A stretch of DNA of 47,388 nt, from the IMG/VR virus record IMGVR_UViG_2558860288_000006, one strand, 5' to 3'. The notes beneath the pieces were generated by a model. That model did not search any database, was not told the DNA's origin, and saw only the letters and a program-made list of their open reading frames with translations. Source of the DNA: a virus (taxonomy: Duplodnaviria; Heunggongvirae; Uroviricota; Caudoviricetes). Both the position numbers and the translations under genes were made by a program. Shown here one piece after another: positions 1-45,836 of this stretch. Within the stretch, counting starts at the first letter, position 1; each line of letters opens with the position of its first letter.

Positions 1-954
1 ATGACTAGCCGCCGCATTGCCTATGCTTATTTCGATCCTGTATGGGATAAAAGCATACACAGTACAGCACAGTTAGTTCGTACAAGTGTTGGACCATTAG
101 AATATCAAGAAGAAATGAAAGATCATCTCATTTGTCCCCAATGTTATGAGCCACTTAATCGTATACCATCAGAGTCAAGTATAACGATTATGACTGACGG
201 GCGAGAAGCTCTCTTCCGCCACTACCCAAATCCAAATGCTCCTTTTTGTTTGTTGAGAAGCGGAGCTATTATCGGGAAACGCTATTCTAGTGAAGAAGAA
301 GCCCAAAAAGCTGTTAGCGACAATGATGTCATTATCATATCCGGATTCATGCAGGAACGACCAGAACTTGTATATCGTGATAATACAGATTCTTCCGCCA
401 CTCGAACGGAAATGTACTTTGAAAGTAAAAATGGGGTATTTGTTGAAATTCCCATCTCTCGTCATCAAGGTGAAACATTCAATCTGCCCAGTAAGATAAC
501 AAGCGTGCAAGCTCTATGTACTAACTTTCAAGAAAACTACTATAAAGAGATATTTATCACCACTGGCACTAGTCTCGCTCGCAGTTATATTTTTTGCGAT
601 GCATTAAAAAGTATTTCTGATATCCGCTCTGAACAAGAAGAACCGGGGTTTTATTTTGGTGAAATAAGTTCAATAGAACAACATACTAATCATTCAACCG
701 TATGGTTAAAATTAAAAGGTTCTTGTTATTATCCTGATTTCAGAGTGCGAATAGAAAATAACACTGCAATTTCTCGTGGTATAACGGACGAAAATGCAAA
801 AAATAGAATTATTATTTTTTACACTCCAATATCATCTGTCGGCATGGGATACTGGACACATATTTTGAAATGGGGGGAAGTAGGTTTACTGGCTGAAAAA
901 CACAAAGATTTTTTACTTGACGATTATAACAAGAAACACACTAGTAACTGTTGA
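1..954 (+). CDS. Hypothetical protein (317 aa), orphan cargo gene at the tail-fibre end
   Basis: ATG-initiated 317-aa ORF, visibly AT-richer than neighbours, convergent with the minus-strand fibre assembly gene; no motif I can assign (single CPQC pair only). Confidence 0.5.
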   Translation: MTSRRIAYAYFDPVWDKSIHSTAQLVRTSVGPLEYQEEMKDHLICPQCYEPLNRIPSESSITIMTDGREALFRHYPNPNAPFCLLRSGAIIGKRYSSEEEAQKAVSDNDVIIISGFMQERPELVYRDNTDSSATRTEMYFESKNGVFVEIPISRHQGETFNLPSKITSVQALCTNFQENYYKEIFITTGTSLARSYIFCDALKSISDIRSEQEEPGFYFGEISSIEQHTNHSTVWLKLKGSCYYPDFRVRIENNTAISRGITDENAKNRIIIFYTPISSVGMGYWTHILKWGEVGLLAEKHKDFLLDDYNKKHTSNC

Positions 955-5618: not shown

Positions 5619-6828
5619 ACTTGTTAACTTGAACCTGTGATACCACCGTCGAAAAATAGGAATAGGTATCGCCATAAACCAGGCTTGTGTCTTTTGCCGG
5701 AGGAACAATATGGCCATTAATGCCAATGCTCACACTGATTGTTGAGATCAACGTCGCATCAACCAACAATCTGACGGAACTGGTAAAAATATCCTGGATT
5801 CGCAGCAGATTTATCGGGTGTCCGACTTCAATAGAATTGATGTAATCAGCAACGTTTTGCTGCACAGCCATAGCAATACCCGCCGGATCAACATAATCAT
5901 CAGATACAGTGTTCCAGGTGATTAGCACCATGACGTTTTGTGATGACGGGATAACGAACGGCACCTGATAAACATCTGGCGAAACGGTTATTGAAACCGT
6001 GCGTTTTTCCACTGCCGCACCAGATGGATTGCTAACATCGTTGGTCAGTTTCGAAATATCCGGTACAGATTTGTAAATAGCATAAGCCACATCATACGGA
6101 TCACCGCCACCAACAACCGCAACCCATTTCCCCAGCGACGACTGCCGGAAAGAAATCAGGTTTTCTCGCACACCGCTTACTGATTTGAGCATCGCTTTAA
6201 AGCAATCCGGTGTTCCCTGCACACCAAACATGCCGGACTCCATGACTTCGGCGCGGTAAGATGCCCACGTTTGCGCCTCCTGACCTGGCATCCCTGCGGT
6301 AAGGTTCGTGCATTTTACAGGCTGATCTTTGGGTACCGATGTAATGACCTGCGTTACGGTTCCTTCCGGTACAGCCCATGAGCCTGACGTTGTGGCCACA
6401 CAGTAGACTGGCTCAGTCTGCCCGCTTTCCGGCACCACCGTATCGCGGGAAACTGCATACTGGTAGTTGCCGTCACCGACAACAAATCCTTTAGGGATAC
6501 CAAACCCCGGCAACGCCTCAAACACCACGTATACCGCCGTATTTGTACTTAATCCCTTCTGTGCTCCATAAATGTTTCCGAGTTGCATCAGTAACGGAAT
6601 ATTTGCGCCGTATGGGCTTACGGAGTTAATAAGGTCCACCCGCGCCTGGTCTATTAATGCCAGCGCCCCGACAGCCGTGCTGGCAAGGTCTGTAATAAGC
6701 CCCGCCGGAAGGTTGGCTGTATATCCAGGTACTTTTTCGGCAACTCTGGTGATAAGATTCGCGAGCAAATCATTGGGTGGCGTAGGCTGCGCCCCCGCAC
6801 TGGTCATAGTAATTGGTATTTCTGACAT
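5602..6828 (-). CDS. Baseplate J-like protein
   Basis: 408 aa; size and position between W-like and I-like genes in a contractile-tail baseplate cluster. Confidence 0.55.
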   Translation of the reverse strand: MSEIPITMTSAGAQPTPPNDLLANLITRVAEKVPGYTANLPAGLITDLASTAVGALALIDQARVDLINSVSPYGANIPLLMQLGNIYGAQKGLSTNTAVYVVFEALPGFGIPKGFVVGDGNYQYAVSRDTVVPESGQTEPVYCVATTSGSWAVPEGTVTQVITSVPKDQPVKCTNLTAGMPGQEAQTWASYRAEVMESGMFGVQGTPDCFKAMLKSVSGVRENLISFRQSSLGKWVAVVGGGDPYDVAYAIYKSVPDISKLTNDVSNPSGAAVEKRTVSITVSPDVYQVPFVIPSSQNVMVLITWNTVSDDYVDPAGIAMAVQQNVADYINSIEVGHPINLLRIQDIFTSSVRLLVDATLISTISVSIGINGHIVPPAKDTSLVYGDTYSYFSTVVSQVQVNKYAISD

Positions 6829-6840
6829 ATTTACTCCATT

Positions 6841-6866
6841 AAAAAACCCGCTTTCGCGGGTTTTTT
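6841..6866. terminator. Intrinsic terminator hairpin (palindromic, usable on either strand)
   Basis: aaaaaacccgc-tttc-gcgggtttttt: GC stem with 4-nt loop flanked by A6 and T6, 2 nt after the stop of the nuclease-domain gene. Confidence 0.55.
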
Positions 6867-6868
6867 AC

Positions 6869-8029
6869 TTATTCAACCTCTTCTAAACTGCTCACTCTGG
6901 ACCCTCGGCGGAAATTATCATCATTTTTAACATACTCGTATGAATCCAGAATCAAACCAGATATGCGAAGTATATCTTCCGGATTAGTTATATGTATCCT
7001 TTTACCATCCGTATCAAGTCGAGCTCGTCTTATTTCATTCAACTGAACTTCACTAAGCGAAATAGGTAATGTTATAAATGAAGATTTTTTATCATAAAAT
7101 CTTAACAGCCATCTATTAGTTTTACCATTCAATAGTACACCAAAATATGACTCAGTATCTTTATATTCTATATTATCTTCTGTTTGTATGATTTGTTTTA
7201 CCCTTTCAAATAGTTCCAATTCTTTGGCTGTGGTTATTATGTTGGGGTTTTCTTCATCAACAATGGCGTTATTAACTTGTGTATCCGTTGCATCATTTTC
7301 TTTAGTTTGCTCTACCGGTTGTGTAGATAGCCCGGAAACCACCATTGCGCTAACAGCGCGCTCAACGGCCTGTTTAACTAATGGAGTCACGAACTCAAGA
7401 AATCTCTGATTAAGTTGTCTCTCAATATTTGAACGACTAGCAACATATCGAACAAACTCCAGATCAACTTCACGAAGACTAGAACTGATTGTTTTAGTAA
7501 ATGAATTCAAATAAACACTTTCTTCAGCCAGTGTCCGCAAAGCCTCTGGTTTGAATTTATCATAACGAAAACGAAATAATTGTGTAATATCGGAGTGAGT
7601 TAGAGAATCCATTCTTATTTTTAAAAACGGCGTTGAATCCATTATGTTTTTTTGTTTCAAATCCGTAAAAAAACGCCATTCAACACCATTTGTAATGGCT
7701 GATATAGTAACTTCCGGTGTTGAATTAAAATATCTTGATAGCTGTGGGCAGTGATTATCAATTTGTTCTGAAAACGATTTCGCCTCAATGAACATCACAG
7801 GAACATCATGACAAAATAAAGCGTAATCAACCCGTTCATTAGCCTTAACCCCGGGGAAGTCAGCACTATACTCAGCTTTGACTTTTCTTGGATCATACGG
7901 AGTAAAACCAAGAATATCTAGAAATGGCATAATGAGTGCTTGTTTTGTCGTTTCTTCAGTTGTACAAAACACCCCCATTTTTGCAACATGCTCTGTGTGT
8001 ATTTTTAACTTATTTGCAAAATTTTCCAT
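6869..8029 (-). CDS. PD-(D/E)xK nuclease-domain protein (type I restriction HsdR N-terminal / Mrr-like fold) with uncharacterised C-terminal region
   Basis: Motif block ...TKQALIMPFLDILGF...ERVDYALFCHDVPVMFIEAKS (Asp73, Glu87-x-Lys89 in track numbering); AT-rich; inserted between baseplate W-like and J-like genes; ATG at 8029 has a GGAGG SD, alternative ATG at 8044. Confidence 0.6.
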   Translation of the reverse strand: MENFANKLKIHTEHVAKMGVFCTTEETTKQALIMPFLDILGFTPYDPRKVKAEYSADFPGVKANERVDYALFCHDVPVMFIEAKSFSEQIDNHCPQLSRYFNSTPEVTISAITNGVEWRFFTDLKQKNIMDSTPFLKIRMDSLTHSDITQLFRFRYDKFKPEALRTLAEESVYLNSFTKTISSSLREVDLEFVRYVASRSNIERQLNQRFLEFVTPLVKQAVERAVSAMVVSGLSTQPVEQTKENDATDTQVNNAIVDEENPNIITTAKELELFERVKQIIQTEDNIEYKDTESYFGVLLNGKTNRWLLRFYDKKSSFITLPISLSEVQLNEIRRARLDTDGKRIHITNPEDILRISGLILDSYEYVKNDDNFRRGSRVSSLEEVE

Positions 8030-8179
8030 GCTTGTCTCCTCCATGGTAACAATATGTATTTTGCAAATCCGAAATAATATATGTCAATATGCTCCAGCTT
8101 AGAAAATTACTCGCCCCCCCTAAAATATCTCTCTACAGCACTCCAAACCAAGGTAAAAGTTTTATCATAAAACTGTGAT

Positions 8180-32426: not shown

Positions 32427-32534
32427 AAATATTCACAAATAAAATATACCCGCCAAAGCTGGTTAAGTGCGGGTGCGTTGAGGATGCCTGACTCATCAGA
32501 GGTGGCGGGAGATTTCTCTCCCGCCTGGTCACTC

Positions 32535-32690
32535 TTACTCTCTAGATTCGTAGTCTACGAAGACAGCGACCTCCGTCTGGCCGGTTCGGATTCGTACCTC
32601 GCAGAGGTCTTTCCTCGTTACCAGTGCCGTCACTATGACGGTTAAACAGATGACGATCAGGGCGATTAACATCGCCTTTTGCTGCTTCAT
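32535..32690 (-). CDS. hok: Hok/Gef-family type I toxin (HokD/RelF-like)
   Basis: 51 aa from ATG at 32690: MKQQKAMLIALIVICLTVIVTALVTRKDLCEVRIRTGQTEVAVF..., near-identical to my recollection of E. coli HokD; single TM helix plus periplasmic Cys. Confidence 0.8.
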   Translation of the reverse strand: MKQQKAMLIALIVICLTVIVTALVTRKDLCEVRIRTGQTEVAVFVDYESRE

Positions 32691-32895
32691 AGCCTGCTTC
32701 TCCTTGCCTTGCGGCACGTAAGAGGCTAACCTACATTTGTGAGACATAGATTGGGCCTCAGATTAATGTTAAGCGTCTTGCAGGACGCGTAATGTTAACT
32801 GGGGCTTTTCTCTATCTGCCGCTGGTGTTCATGCCCGAGGCAAATAGCCTCAAGCACCCGCAGTAATTTTACTTAACTCCAGCTACCTCGCCAAT
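32691..32895 (-). promoter_or_regulatory. hok leader / mok-sok-type control region (approximate)
   Basis: Hok loci carry a long structured 5' leader with an overlapping upstream reading frame and an antisense RNA gene; here an in-frame upstream extension reaches 32747; exact sok position not determined. Confidence 0.3.
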
Positions 32896-32952
32896 ATGAA
32901 ATCAATCAGAAAGGCGATCCATAAGAACAATAGACAGATAAAGGATAGTCAG

Positions 32953-34314
32953 ATGCAAACAGCAGAGATGTTTCGAAATTTTTTGAACAATTTGAAAATT
33001 TCAGACGAACGTATGCAGGCAATTGCAACACATTATAAAAATGCCACAAGAAGACTTAACATCGAGTTTCGGGGGGTAGCGAATGGATTCAACAATCGAT
33101 TGAAAGTCGGTTCAGCAGGTCGCCGAACAGCGGTTAGCAAAACATCAGACTTGGATATGCTGTATATTATGCCCGCGAGATTGTGGGGAGATTACCAATC
33201 CGGTGTTAATCCACAGCGCCGTTTGCTTCGCGATGTAAAAGAAGCATTAAAACTATCTTTTACCCAGCAAGAGATCAAGGTTGATAGATTAGTTGTACAA
33301 ATCATTTTTGACTCTTTTCATATAGAGGTGCAACCAGTTTTTGAGACTGATGAAGGGCATTTTAAATATCCTGATACTAAGGCCAACGATGGTAATGGAG
33401 GGTGGCGAGTAACTAAACCTCGGATGGAAATTACCGAAATGAGAAATTTCCGTAATAACAAAAGTAGTAATCTTCATAATCTTTGCCGCATGTTAAGAGC
33501 CTGGAAAAATAGAAACACCGTTGATATGGGGGGGCTTCTCATTGACACATTGGCTTGGAGATTTCTGAAACAAACAGATGATTATGATAATACCGGAATG
33601 GTCAGTTATGGGCTTATGTGTCGAGACTTCTTTGACTTTTTGCATCAAGAAGATGTCCATGAACATTATGCAGCGATAGGAAGTGTGCAGAGAGTTAAGG
33701 TCTATAGAAATTTTCAGCGGCAAGCAAAACGAGCCTTTAAATTATGCACAAAAGCGATTGAAGCTTATGAGAATGGCTCGACAAAGAAATGCCACGAACA
33801 CTGGCGAGAAGTTTTTGGGCTAACTTTCCCTAAAGCAGTTGTAGAAATGCGTGACTCTCAGGGGTTAGAGTCAGCTAATTTCATCAATGAGTCCTATACG
33901 GCTCAGACGTGGCGCAATACGGAAGAGTTTACAGATGAAAAGTTTGATGATGTTGATATAAGATACCCCCTCGAAGTTAACTGCATTGTCAAAGAAAACG
34001 GGTATAGGGACCGTGCAATTAGGGCTTACCTGTCGGATATGGCTCGTTATTGGTTACCACCGAATAGAACTTTATCATTTTCGATCAACCAAGCAAGTTT
34101 GGATATCATTCCTGAGCCTTATGATATTTACTGGAAAGTACTGAATAGAGGTTTAGAAGCTGAGCAGCGTGATGAAGTTCGAGGTCAAATAGTTTTAGGT
34201 CAAGTAACTCACACTGAACATACAAAATTTAGAGGTGATCACAAGGTTTGGTGTTACATAGTTAAGAACCATATAGTAATTGCCCAAAACGTTATCGACA
34301 TACCAATCGAGTAA
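32953..34314 (+). CDS. Nucleotidyltransferase, Pol-beta superfamily (CD-NTase/SMODS-like signalling enzyme candidate)
   Basis: Active-site pattern ...KVGSAGRRTAVSKTSDLDMLYIMP... (GS, DxD) and a later acidic strand ...VVQIIFDSFHIE...; ATG at 32953 has an AAGGA SD (alternative ATG at 32896 gives 472 aa); AT-rich, plus strand. Confidence 0.65.
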   Translation: MQTAEMFRNFLNNLKISDERMQAIATHYKNATRRLNIEFRGVANGFNNRLKVGSAGRRTAVSKTSDLDMLYIMPARLWGDYQSGVNPQRRLLRDVKEALKLSFTQQEIKVDRLVVQIIFDSFHIEVQPVFETDEGHFKYPDTKANDGNGGWRVTKPRMEITEMRNFRNNKSSNLHNLCRMLRAWKNRNTVDMGGLLIDTLAWRFLKQTDDYDNTGMVSYGLMCRDFFDFLHQEDVHEHYAAIGSVQRVKVYRNFQRQAKRAFKLCTKAIEAYENGSTKKCHEHWREVFGLTFPKAVVEMRDSQGLESANFINESYTAQTWRNTEEFTDEKFDDVDIRYPLEVNCIVKENGYRDRAIRAYLSDMARYWLPPNRTLSFSINQASLDIIPEPYDIYWKVLNRGLEAEQRDEVRGQIVLGQVTHTEHTKFRGDHKVWCYIVKNHIVIAQNVIDIPIE

Positions 34315-34319
34315 TTATC

Positions 34320-34901
34320 ATGCAAAAAAATGACTTATTATCTCAGATTGCCTCTGCCGGATATAATGTTGGATTTGGCGCTAAGAAAAATTTTGCTACA
34401 TTTGATATTGTTAGCAAACTCCCTGGCTGGATTGGTATTATATCACTAGCAGTCTCTATTTTAGGCCTTTATATGGATGAAATGAGTTCTAAGAATATTG
34501 CAGCCATTTTTATCATTTTAAGCATTGGCAGTTTGTACATCAATTTCTATGATGGTGATAAAAATAAATATGAAGAGGCTGGAAAGAAGCAAACAGCAAT
34601 CTTTAGAAAGATTGAAAGATTGTATTACGATGCAAAATCAGAAAGCGAACCGGATTCTGTTAAATATATTGGGCAACTTGACATTCTGTTAAAAGAATTT
34701 GATGAAACCACTATCACCAAACAAATTTGTGGAAGCAATTGGTATGCTCATTATAAATTCTTTAGTGAAATGGAAAAAAGGTGGCTTGAAGATCAGTTGT
34801 CATTGACTTTCTGGAAGGATAAAGTCCCTAACACTTTGAAATTTCTCATTCTGATAGTTTTCTGCGTCGTTTTGCTTTCGATAATTTATAGGTGTGGTTG
34901 A
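34320..34901 (+). CDS. Small membrane protein with three predicted TM helices (candidate effector)
   Basis: 193 aa; hydrophobic helices WIGIISLAVSILGLYM, IAAIFIILSIGSLYINF and C-terminal FLILIVFCVVLLSIIY; start 5 nt after the NTase stop (operon). Confidence 0.6.
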   Translation: MQKNDLLSQIASAGYNVGFGAKKNFATFDIVSKLPGWIGIISLAVSILGLYMDEMSSKNIAAIFIILSIGSLYINFYDGDKNKYEEAGKKQTAIFRKIERLYYDAKSESEPDSVKYIGQLDILLKEFDETTITKQICGSNWYAHYKFFSEMEKRWLEDQLSLTFWKDKVPNTLKFLILIVFCVVLLSIIYRCG

Positions 34902-34908
34902 TTGTCAT

Positions 34909-34933
34909 GATAGAGGAGTTACACTCCTCTATC
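34909..34933 (+). other. Perfect 11-bp-stem hairpin downstream of the NTase/membrane-protein operon (no U-tract)
   Basis: gatagaggagt-tac-actcctctatc beginning 8 nt after the effector stop codon. Confidence 0.45.
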
Positions 34934-35142
34934 CTCTCTAGGAGGTATTGGTTCTGCTTTGCCCACATCAGGTAATATACTGTACGTTTTCAACTTCCGC
35001 TTTTGGCACAAAGCTGACAACCAGACTAGTTATGGTCCTATGCCATAAAAGTGTCAATTAATATCTGAATTAATACTCTTTAATTTCGTTCACCGTGGCG
35101 ATGCACGAATTTTTTCCTTATAAAATGCCAAAATCCACTGCA

Positions 35143-35511
35143 TTACTTCGCTCTCCAAGCACTCTCTACAAACGATGTTATTACGCCTGTCGTAACGACG
35201 TATTTCTCCATCAGGTAATGACAGATAAGGTCCGGATCAACCACAGATGGTTTCTTCAGCTTTGCCCTTGAGAGTTTTTTGCGGGCCTTTATCCAGTCCT
35301 TACGTGCCTGTTCAGACGGAAATAACCCGTAGCCGGAGTTGTATAAATCGCCACTGGCAACCAGCTCTCTGGCAAGAACACTCATCAGATATCTTGTCGC
35401 ACCTGTCTTAGCTTCCAGTTGTCGTAACGTCTCGCGCCCACTCTGGCGCACGAGCTCAACAACCTTCCCCTTAATTTTTTCCCGCTCTTCTTGTGTAAAT
35501 ACTTTTGCCAT
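35143..35511 (-). CDS. Hypothetical protein (122 aa), early region
   Basis: ATG at 35511 with a GGAGG SD; basic helical protein (…KARKKLSRAKLKK…); downstream of the replication genes. Confidence 0.45.
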   Translation of the reverse strand: MAKVFTQEEREKIKGKVVELVRQSGRETLRQLEAKTGATRYLMSVLARELVASGDLYNSGYGLFPSEQARKDWIKARKKLSRAKLKKPSVVDPDLICHYLMEKYVVTTGVITSFVESAWRAK

Positions 35512-35526
35512 AAGCGCCTCCGGCAA

Positions 35527-45460: not shown

Positions 45461-45655
45461 ATGCGGTATGAAAAAGTCAAACCATGCCCTTTTTGTGGTT
45501 GTCCATCAGTAACGGTGAAAGCCATTTCAGGATATTACCGCGCGAAGTGTAACGGATGCGAATCCCGAACCGGCTATGGTGGAAGTGAAAAAGAAGCACT
45601 CGAACGATGGAATAAACGAACCACTGGAAATAATAATGGAGGTGTTCATGTATAA
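45461..45655 (+). CDS. ralR: Restriction alleviation protein Lar/RalR-like
   Basis: 64 aa from ATG at 45461; Cys-rich (KPCPFCGCP ... KCNGCESRTGYGGSEKEALERWNKR) as in the Lar family; position before xis/int. Confidence 0.55.
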   Translation: MRYEKVKPCPFCGCPSVTVKAISGYYRAKCNGCESRTGYGGSEKEALERWNKRTTGNNNGGVHV

Positions 45656-45836
45656 AATTACCGCCACTATTGAAAAGGAAGGTGGCACTCCTACTAACTG
45701 GACAAGGTACTCAAAAACAAAATTAACCAAATCAGAATGCGAAAAAATGCTCTCAGGTAAAAAAGAAGCAGGCGTTTCCAGAGAGCAGAAAGTAAAACTG
45801 ATAAATTTTAATTGCGAGCAACTTCAGTCCTCGTGA
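45648..45836 (+). CDS. Small hypothetical protein (YdaC-like position)
   Basis: 62 aa from ATG at 45648 with a GGAGGTG SD; overlaps the lar stop by 8 nt. Confidence 0.4.
   Translation: MYKITATIEKEGGTPTNWTRYSKTKLTKSECEKMLSGKKEAGVSREQKVKLINFNCEQLQSS

Follow-up and report, generated by a model that had tools for sequence, protein, structure and literature searches.

Within a 47,388-nt stretch of Caudoviricetes DNA (IMG/VR record IMGVR_UViG_2558860288_000006, hereafter the window), two plus-strand open reading frames are flanked by phage genes encoded on the minus strand, and the question they raise is whether they form a nucleotide-signaling defense system and, if so, of which family. The original prediction had taken them for a signal-producing nucleotidyltransferase and a membrane effector, as paired in Type I CBASS, SMODS-SLATT or Hailong-like systems. 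Pfam and PADLOC profiles and the fold predicted by AF2 support this pairing in its CBASS or SMODS-SLATT form, and we consider it very probable that a Rac-like lambdoid prophage here carries, among its accessory cargo, an anti-phage operon of the Type I CBASS kind.

A mobile cassette between hok/sok and lygF

The first frame, which in its longest form covers 32896..34314 and encodes 472 aa, and the second (34320..34901, 193 aa) are separated by 5 nt on the same strand, as originally described, and their orientation against the minus-strand phage genes is likewise as had been noted. In an Edwardsiella prophage, nucleotide homology of 87% spans exactly 32933-34932, and in an Enterobacter island it spans 32933-34841; conversely, phages Evi, Tritos, mEp460 and HannyBb are homologous up to 32932-32941 and again from 34986-34992 (35116 in HannyBb). 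The mobile two-gene CBASS cassette (32933..34932, plus strand) is thus 2,000 bp long. The claim that it lies in AT-rich DNA holds, with a GC content of 38.1% against 48.1% in the rest of the window, and equally low values are reached in only 0.4% of 2-kb windows. The locus is swapped-in accessory cargo of a Rac-like lambdoid E. coli prophage.

The hok toxin gene reported as a flank was recovered as a hok/mok/sok toxin-antitoxin locus directly upstream of the operon (32535..32859, minus strand; RefSeq Hok/Gef, with Rfam sok at 32685-32859, E 6.6e-25), and the right flank is formed by a DUF977 gene (35143..35526, minus strand; Pfam DUF977, 3.1e-15) that is labeled LygF in related phages. Both lie outside the system. 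In related phages the same hok-lygF junction holds PD-T7-1 or PDC-S15, and other cargo found there runs in the same orientation. The hok/sok-lygF interval is a defense-cargo hotspot of Rac/mEp460-like lambdoid prophages. PADLOC identified no further defense genes among the seven other accessory ORFs of the window.

The gene pair is kept, with a gap of 5-8 nt, in at least five unrelated genomic contexts. Defense islands of V. vulnificus carry it beside HipA, TIR, SIR2, WYL and type I R-M genes, and it is also present on E. coli IncFII plasmids, in the Edwardsiella prophage and in an Enterobacter IS island. The IncFII plasmids (P0030) represent a second E. coli lineage, with an identity of only 45%.

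Start codon and conservation of the cyclase gene

The start originally assigned to the first gene, ATG 32896, lies 19 codons too far upstream. It lacks a Shine-Dalgarno sequence and falls in 32896-32932, which is flank DNA common to phages with unrelated cargo, and all cyclase profile matches start at residue 20 of the 472-aa ORF; it was discarded on these grounds. The true start is almost certainly ATG 32953 (Met20 of the long ORF), which is preceded at a distance of 7 nt by the Shine-Dalgarno sequence AAGGA (32941..32945, plus strand), which the Edwardsiella and Enterobacter copies keep in the form TAAGGAT. The resulting CD-NTase-AGS-C cyclase gene (32953..34314, plus strand) encodes 453 aa and is recognized by PADLOC; the protein matches RefSeq WP_155849665.1 and occurs in its exact 453-aa sequence on 235 public contigs, whereas no record of the 472-aa form was found. 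The cyclase and effector genes show dN/dS values of 0.07-0.14 and are both under purifying selection.

Catalytic core of the cyclase

The first 293 residues (32953..33831, plus strand) constitute a CD-NTase catalytic core, as indicated by Pfam SMODS, by the profile match to P. aeruginosa CdnD (PaCdnD) and by Foldseek. The enzyme is a nucleotidyltransferase of the cGAS/DncV-like kind, and its GS, DxD and Glu catalytic residues are intact. SMODS (PF18144) matches ORF1 with an E-value of 6.5e-35 and 121 bits (cutoff 26.5), and the PADLOC CBASS Cyclase model PDLC00796 matches it at full length (7.2e-157), from residue 20 to residue 472 in the numbering of the long ORF. The motif KVGSAGRRTAVSKTSDLDMLYIMP is present in ORF1, and the GS and DxD residues predicted to form its active site (G53, S54, D66 and D68 in the 453-aa protein; G72, S73, D85 and D87 in 472-aa numbering) prove to be invariant in 44/44 homologues. 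They are also in register with those of PaCdnD in a profile match (6p8u/6p82, E 3e-13) that covers the whole core. The candidate third acidic strand, VVQIIFDSFHIE, stands as well: its last Glu, E125 (E144 in the 472-aa ORF), is acidic in all 44 homologues (37 E, 7 D) and lines up with the Asp in the VDAVPAF strand of PaCdnD, a position that we take to be the usual site of the third catalytic carboxylate in the CD-NTase fold. The invariant D111 was also considered for this role and was dropped in favor of E125, which is the residue aligned with the third-Asp strand of PaCdnD.

The AF2 model of the cyclase (pLDDT 84, pTM 0.80) predicts a CD-NTase fold of the Pol-beta type, the GS and DxD residues lying within its active site. 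Its best Foldseek match is 6p82 (E 1.2e-12, target-normalized TM-score 0.74-0.76), followed by CdnC, CdnD02, CdnB, DncV, CdnE and CdnG; the top matches are all solved bacterial CD-NTases, with the exception of 9ard, matched through the AGS-C domain, and of one weak match to a CCA-adding enzyme. Confidence in the model is low at residues 58-67, the loop that bears D66. Single-sequence searches of the PDB returned no match for either the cyclase or the effector, the cyclase being informative in profile and fold searches only. With the NCBIfam CBASS cyclase equivalog models the protein scores 94 bits against a cutoff of 200, which places its subfamily outside those narrowly curated models.

Linker and AGS-C domain

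The roughly 300 aa that follow the active-site region, initially left unassigned, are the helical lobe of the CD-NTase, a hypervariable linker and an AGS-C domain. The last of these (aa 321-453; 33913..34311, plus strand) is an Ig-like beta-sandwich according to Pfam, AF2 and Foldseek: AGS_C (PF18134) matches aa 340-472 of the long ORF with an E-value of 3.2e-37 and 127.8 bits (cutoff 26.7), AF2 models the domain as all-beta, and Foldseek relates it to the AGS-C domain of EcPycC (9ard) at E 1.9e-5. Its dN/dS is 0.12. The suspicion that so long a C-terminal extension might be atypical can be set aside, given that about 40% of Type I CD-NTases carry AGS-C fusions (bioRxiv 10.1101/2023.05.21.541620).

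The linker (aa 294-320; 33832..33912, plus strand) is predicted to be disordered, with pLDDT below 50 at residues 298-318, and column identity at residues 301-315 averages 0.19 as compared with 0.43-0.87 elsewhere. Among homologues it ranges from 15 to 26 aa and is rich in Glu, Ser and Ala. This variability is framed by conserved elements.

One may speculate, with rather little expectation of being right, that the linker acts as a protease tripwire, cleavage of which by a phage prohead protease would free an autoinhibitory AGS-C domain and start signaling. Many of the linkers do hold hydrophobic-x-Glu motifs that resemble known prohead-protease sites, and a tripwire in the linker, if true, would account for the cross-resistance to escape mutants of the prohead protease that is common to AGS-C operons (bioRxiv 10.1101/2023.05.21.541620). 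Protease-tripwire loops have been described in clades A, D and G only (Hobbs & Kranzusch 2026), and the AF2 model shows no disordered activation loop of about 30 aa at the EcCdnG position in the core; pLDDT is low in two segments of the cyclase, namely the active-site loop (58-67) and the linker between core and AGS-C (298-318). The linker might provide, in AGS-C-fused cyclases, a parallel to the internal activation loops of those three clades, and the tripwire, if true, would be a trait of the whole AGS-C subfamily and not of this locus alone.

The SLATT_6 effector

The second gene (34320..34901, plus strand) encodes a 193-aa SLATT_6 transmembrane effector, an identification in which Pfam, NCBIfam, PADLOC, hydropathy and AF2 concur. 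SLATT_6 (PF18169) matches it with an E-value of 1.1e-61 and 207.9 bits (cutoff 27.1), NCBIfam NF033630 with 237 bits (cutoff 100) and the PADLOC 2TM Effector model at full length (8e-78). Two closely spaced hydrophobic helices and a third at the C-terminus had been proposed by eye, and the Kyte-Doolittle profile does place hydrophobic segments at 34-52, 59-78 and 172-191, all of which are helices in an entirely helical AF2 model (pLDDT 89). The protein consists of a TM hairpin (34-52/59-78), a conserved cytoplasmic helical region (approximately 79-170) and a C-terminal TM segment (172-191), and the distribution of Lys and Arg agrees with an N-in topology. A three-helix effector is not atypical, as had been feared, since the C-terminal helix is kept across SLATT_6 (hydrophobic in 38/39 aligned sequences). 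The conserved motifs of the effector are YNVGFGAKK and SKQIxGSNWYAHYKFF. Profile and fold searches revealed no SAVED or other recognized sensor domain in SLATT_6, and the AF2 model has no specific fold match to any solved chain; the ligand site is presumably the conserved cytoplasmic helical region.

Assignment to Type I CBASS

The profile searches thus return SMODS, AGS_C, SLATT_6 and both the CBASS Cyclase and 2TM Effector models, all of them on the two genes of the cassette. No Cap2, Cap3, HORMA, TRIP13 or other CBASS-related gene occurs within 12 kb on either side, where the neighbors of the operon are hok/sok and the phage genes DUF977, DUF1627 and ydaV, and it is this lack of ancillary cap genes that leads us to class the operon as Type I CBASS. 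The locus combines a CD-NTase core and an adjacent effector with no ancillary regulators, in keeping with that type. The AGS-C fusion, the SLATT6 partner and the E. coli origin all agree with CD-NTase clade F, but AGS-C also occurs in clades B and H and in some members of clade G (bioRxiv 10.1101/2023.05.21.541620). The suggestion of a Hailong-like system, on the other hand, finds no support; the full-length matches of both proteins to CBASS models, and an effector that matches no solved structure specifically, argue against it.

Transcription of the cassette

No convincing sigma-70-like promoter was scored on the plus strand between hok/sok and the start codon. A region of about 200 nt upstream that is common to other copies is absent here, and of the sequence before the ATG no more than 20 nt moved with the cassette; inserted in this way without its native upstream region, the cassette would have to be transcribed from the phage flank. 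At its other end, the predicted hairpin was confirmed as a perfect 11-bp stem with a UAC loop (34909..34933, plus strand; arms 34909-34919 / 34923-34933). By itself this stem does not qualify as a canonical terminator, as it has no U-run and a z of -1.1 in the fold computation, and its sense comes only from the Edwardsiella copy, in which TTTTAAATTTT comes directly after the same stem and the structure has a terminator-like score. By this comparison it is the terminator stem of the cassette, whose U-tract has been lost here.

The truncated upstream region, the missing promoter-like site and the lost U-tract, together with the presence of the cassette in only 2 of 5,426 complete E. coli genomes, are what might be expected of a recent promoter-less insertion that is intact but silent or decaying and serves no current function. 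We regard this as quite unlikely. Both ORFs are intact and differ from strain R1 by 3 nt over 2 kb, the exact effector occurs on 274 contigs and the exact cyclase on the 235 mentioned above, and purifying selection is strong in the family. Moreover, defense genes are typically expressed at a low, constitutive level, read-through from flank promoters, such as those of the hok/sok region, is plausible, and the orientation of the cassette is that of the other cargo at the hotspot.

Proposed mode of action

By analogy with characterized systems, a functional Type I CBASS operon at this locus would operate as follows. In the lysogen, the cyclase would be made at a low level and remain inactive until a superinfecting phage activates it, probably at the late stage of virion assembly, with the AGS-C domain possibly shaping the range of phages sensed. 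The cyclase would then turn NTPs into a cyclic di- or trinucleotide, which would bind the cytoplasmic region of SLATT_6 and cause the effector to oligomerize or open in the inner membrane. SLATT_6 would in this way be expected to collapse membrane integrity or potential, and the infected cell to die or arrest before phage release, an abortive infection that would protect both the population of lysogens and the prophage they harbor.

The inverse logic, that of the guard or decoy systems Hailong and Panoptes, would have a constitutively made nucleotide or oligonucleotide keep the SLATT channel closed until phage enzymes or sponges remove it and so free the effector. SLATT-family proteins do take part in systems regulated by nucleic-acid products, as in their associations with DRT9 and DRT10 (PMC12483538; review PMC13276650), Hailong itself joins an NTase with a membrane channel (PMC13276650), and SLATT_6 is without a recognized sensor domain for an activating ligand. 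However, we are dealing with a bona fide CD-NTase, matched at full length by CBASS cyclase models, and not with a Cas10-palm mCpol, which led us to reject a Panoptes-like reading. In the Type I panel to which the CdnF-SLATT6 operons belong, the DDAA cyclase mutants tested, those of other operons, lose both defense and toxicity instead of becoming toxic, and 15 of 17 Type I CBASS operons are well tolerated (bioRxiv 10.1101/2023.05.21.541620), so that we hold a guard logic to be highly improbable. Membership in another nucleotide-signaling family, be it Pycsar or a non-CBASS SMODS system, is suggested by an AGS-C domain common to PycC cyclases (9ard; PADLOC PycC, 1.8e-7) and can be dismissed as next to impossible, the PycC likeness being confined to the AGS-C part (aa 359-461 only), the catalytic domain being SMODS/CD-NTase and not a class III cyclase, and the partner gene matching the CBASS 2TM effector model.

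Relation to known systems

The closest counterparts of this operon are two E. coli Type I CBASS operons described by Richmond-Buccola et al. [quoted passage not shown] The likeness, which is one of architecture, comprises the same species, two genes, an AGS-C fusion and SLATT_6, whereas the present operon is prophage-borne and devoid of its native upstream region. It might belong to the EcCdnF04 lineage, to that of EcCdnF05 or to a third.

With the solved CD-NTases (P. aeruginosa CdnD (6p82/6p8u), CdnC, CdnD02, DwCdnB, DncV, CdnE and CdnG) the cyclase shares the bilobed fold, and its GS motif, DxD motif and third-carboxylate strand line up with theirs, but identity is only 12-18%. The solved enzymes lack AGS-C and come mostly from Type II/III operons with Cap2/Cap3 or HORMA/TRIP13, regulators that are absent here. 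Pycsar PycC (9ard) has the C-terminal Ig-like AGS-C domain too, but differs in its catalytic domain and class of product, being a pyrimidine mononucleotide cyclase, in contrast to the CD-NTase of this locus. Among effectors, Cap14 (Saf-2TM-SAVED), a nucleotide-gated membrane channel (PMC10402079), and Cap15 are likewise Type I CBASS partners that kill via the membrane, although SLATT_6 has neither a SAVED nor a beta-barrel ligand domain. Hailong (HalB NTase and HalA channel) presents the same two-gene pairing of NTase and membrane effector, with DNA oligomers serving as its inhibitory guard signal (PMC13276650); in the present case, by contrast, a CBASS-type CD-NTase is fused to AGS-C and the effector model matches no solved fold.

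The family itself is already known, being well described and recognized at full length by the standard defense-finder models, and to its description the locus adds little. Our searches of solved structures found none for a clade F or AGS-C-fused CD-NTase, nor does one exist, according to those searches, for the AGS-C + SLATT_6 subfamily. Being native to E. coli, the operon could be used as a model for studying the product, the trigger and the effector ligand site of this subfamily. It also shows a CBASS cassette that moved as a bare unit of Shine-Dalgarno sequence, ORFs and stem, dependent on transcription from the host element, and it documents the hok/sok-lygF hotspot as a site at which CBASS, PD-T7-1 and PDC-S15 interchange at base-precise junctions.

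Identity of the operon

The two plus-strand ORFs, which lie 5 nt apart among minus-strand phage genes as described in the original prediction, appear from their sequences to encode a true CBASS of Type I, pairing a CD-NTase-AGS-C cyclase with a SLATT_6 effector. The first had been read as a 472 aa ORF (32896..34314), a start that proved wrong. No ribosome-binding site was found for the ATG at 32896, and AAGGA lies 7 nt upstream of the ATG at 32953 (Met20). Moreover, every profile match to the long ORF starts at its residue 20, the RefSeq annotation corresponds to the 453 aa form, 32896-32932 is DNA common to phages with unrelated cargo, and an exact-sequence lookup returned the 453 aa form in 235 public contigs and the 472 aa form in none. 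The cyclase gene is therefore 32953..34314, and the residue numbers originally given are offset by +19.

The predicted signal-producing nucleotidyltransferase and membrane effector were both recovered in profile searches. The cyclase matches Pfam SMODS (6.5e-35) and AGS_C (3.2e-37) and, end to end, the PADLOC CBASS oligonucleotide cyclase PDLC00796 (7.2e-157); the NCBIfam CBASS cyclase equivalogs are matched below cutoff only (94 bits versus 200). Among the matches listed for its 2,704 homologues, all full-length proteins combine SMODS and AGS_C. The proposed Pol-beta/CD-NTase active site is borne out by an alignment of 44 sequences, in which G53, S54, D66 and D68 are invariant and the derived profile covers the whole core of Pseudomonas aeruginosa CdnD (PaCdnD; E 3e-13) and keeps the GS and DxD motifs aligned. 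E125, the final residue of the strand put forward as a third acidic element, is acidic throughout the 44 sequences (Glu in 37, Asp in 7) and lines up with the Asp in the VDAVPAF strand of PaCdnD, identifying it as the probable third catalytic carboxylate. D111 (33283-33285, motif KVDRLVV) is likewise invariant in 44/44 homologues and matches no catalytic residue of PaCdnD in the alignment; a structural or metal-binding role specific to the subfamily is conceivable.

The AlphaFold model of the cyclase (pLDDT 84, pTM 0.80) matches almost exclusively bacterial CD-NTases (CdnD, CdnC, CdnD02, DwCdnB, DncV, CdnE and CdnG), and its C-terminal beta-domain separately matches the solved Ig-like AGS-C of the Pycsar cyclase EcPycC (9ard, E 1.9e-5). 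The 300 aa formerly left unassigned, and suspected of being atypical, thus resolve into three parts: up to about aa 293 the helical lobe of the CD-NTase, then a disordered linker (aa 294-320), and finally an AGS-C domain (aa 321-453), the last being present in ~40% of Type I CD-NTases (10.1101/2023.05.21.541620). Hypervariable (column identity 0.19) and 15-26 aa long, the linker has a high content of Glu, Ser and Ala and is disordered in the model. That it serves as a protease tripwire releasing AGS-C seems unlikely, and any such tripwire would characterise the subfamily as a whole, not this locus in particular. Enzymes of clades A, D and G are activated by protease cleavage of internal activation loops (PMC12991175); in contrast, the model of the window cyclase shows no such loop.

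The effector gene (34320..34901, 193 aa) matches Pfam SLATT_6 (207.9 bits versus a cutoff of 27.1), NCBIfam NF033630 (237 bits versus 100) and the PADLOC CBASS 2TM effector PDLC00695 (8e-78). Hydropathy yields the three expected TM-grade segments (34-52, 59-78 and 172-191), with which the helices of an all-helical AF2 model (pLDDT 89) coincide. The third had also been suspected of being atypical; since the C-terminal segment, variable in sequence, is hydrophobic in 38 of 39 aligned homologues, it is instead a family feature. The predicted topology (N-in, hairpin, cytoplasmic domain, C-out) fits the K/R distribution. Invariant positions group in the N-terminal YNVGFGAKK and cytoplasmic SKQIxGSNWYAHYKFF motifs (n=39), which we infer to be candidate ligand or gating elements.

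Insertion site and transcription of the cassette

The element hosting the cassette is a Rac-like prophage (racR, ydaS/T/U/V, kilR, recE, ralR/RalA and integrase). Local GC at the operon falls to 0.36-0.42, and the AT-richness noted previously is that of a 2 kb cassette with 38.1% GC, versus 48.1% in the remaining window, of which it is the lowest-GC 2 kb stretch. Phages Evi, Tritos, mEp460 and HannyBb are homologous to the window up to 32932-32941 and again from 34986-34992 (Evi, Tritos, mEp460) or 35116 (HannyBb), and an Edwardsiella prophage copy (87% nucleotide identity) is homologous exactly over 32933-34932. At the same hok-lygF site mEp460 carries PD-T7-1 (4e-157), Tritos a candidate FRG-domain PDC-S15 protein (1.2e-98) and Evi a GNAT acetyltransferase with an HTH-cupin regulator. 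Because related phages hold other cargo where the window holds CBASS, the hok/sok-lygF junction in lambdoid phages of the Rac/mEp460 type is a cargo hotspot for interchangeable defence genes, with base-precise flanks (32437-32941 and 34986-35514; loci L010-L013). Cargo is read away from hok in mEp460, Tritos and the window, and in Evi for the acetyltransferase only.

Only 2 of 5,426 complete E. coli genomes contain the operon (99.8% identity), and ~4,280 have the hok flank alone. The cassette also occurs in an Enterobacter IS/resolvase island and, at a different site, in the P22-like Edwardsiella prophage, with more distant versions in E. coli IncFII plasmids and V. vulnificus defence islands. 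In four different V. vulnificus contexts (L002-L005, 5758-5991) the homologous operon is preceded, at a distance of 9 nt, by a 77 aa DUF2188 gene. This gene, which has no counterpart in the window, may be a regulator or third operon member conserved in that sub-lineage. For both genes dN/dS is 0.07-0.14 (~0.12-0.14 for core and AGS-C taken separately), which indicates functional constraint on the cyclase-SLATT_6 family.

The hairpin reported at the right end is a perfect 11-bp stem with a UAC loop (34909-34933), 8 nt past the effector stop codon. In the Edwardsiella copy (L015, 8941-8975) the same stem is followed by TTTTAAATTTT, forming a canonical intrinsic terminator. In the window (34909-34945) a recombination junction directly follows the stem, and in place of the U-tract stands CCTCTCTAGGAGG, which forms a second small hairpin of 4-5 bp. 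Some 200 nt of 5' sequence common to the Edwardsiella and Enterobacter copies is also absent here, and a promoter scan of the region upstream of the cyclase start scored no promoter-like site. As carried by this prophage, the cassette hence comprises only the Shine-Dalgarno sequence, ORFs and stem, and would have to be transcribed from the flank. On the left, the predicted hok gene is confirmed by RefSeq (Hok/Gef) and Rfam (hok/sok, 32685-32859, minus strand; sok E 6.6e-25). The Rfam sok match, on the minus strand like hok, spans 175 nt, far longer than the 64-nt Sok RNA. A putative plus-strand antisense Sok promoter, if firing, would point at the promoter-less cassette and might contribute read-through. 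That the cassette is instead silent, promoter-less cargo is improbable, given its intact ORFs and the wide conservation of the exact sequences.

Proposed mechanism

The analysis establishes that the CD-NTase active site is intact, that its partner is a membrane effector, that the two genes are conserved as a linked operon and that they reside in a defence hotspot; no ancillary CBASS genes were found near the operon. [quoted passage not shown] The operon is possibly already among the Type I CBASS operons tested. Most likely, a late-stage phage cue would be sensed with the help of AGS-C, the cyclase would make a cyclic oligonucleotide, and this signal would gate or oligomerise SLATT_6, leading to membrane failure and aborted infection. 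Cap14 provides a precedent for a CBASS TM effector that acts as a nucleotide-gated channel (PMC10402079). A guard logic with an inhibitory signal, as in Hailong or Panoptes, is improbable, since the enzyme is a CD-NTase and DDAA cyclase mutants, tested for other operons of the Type I panel, are inert (10.1101/2023.05.21.541620). Membership of Pycsar can practically be dismissed, because AGS-C is the sole part shared.

Other features of the window

A 391 aa HSDR_N ORF (type I restriction R-subunit N-terminal, nuclease-like; 6869-8044, minus strand) adjoins a Baseplate_J gene in a second low-GC patch (~39-41% GC, 6300-8000). No PADLOC model matches it, and it may be one more accessory or defence gene, lying amid tail genes. 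Beyond the tail-gene end of the prophage, where the window begins, a 317 aa ORF (1-954, plus strand, 37% GC) without Pfam or PADLOC match represents cargo or flanking DNA. Finally, Rfam places RalA, the antitoxin sRNA of the type I toxin-antitoxin system RalR/RalA, at 45654-45832 (minus strand, 215 bits). Counting hok/sok as well, CBASS thus shares the prophage with at least two toxin-antitoxin loci of type I.
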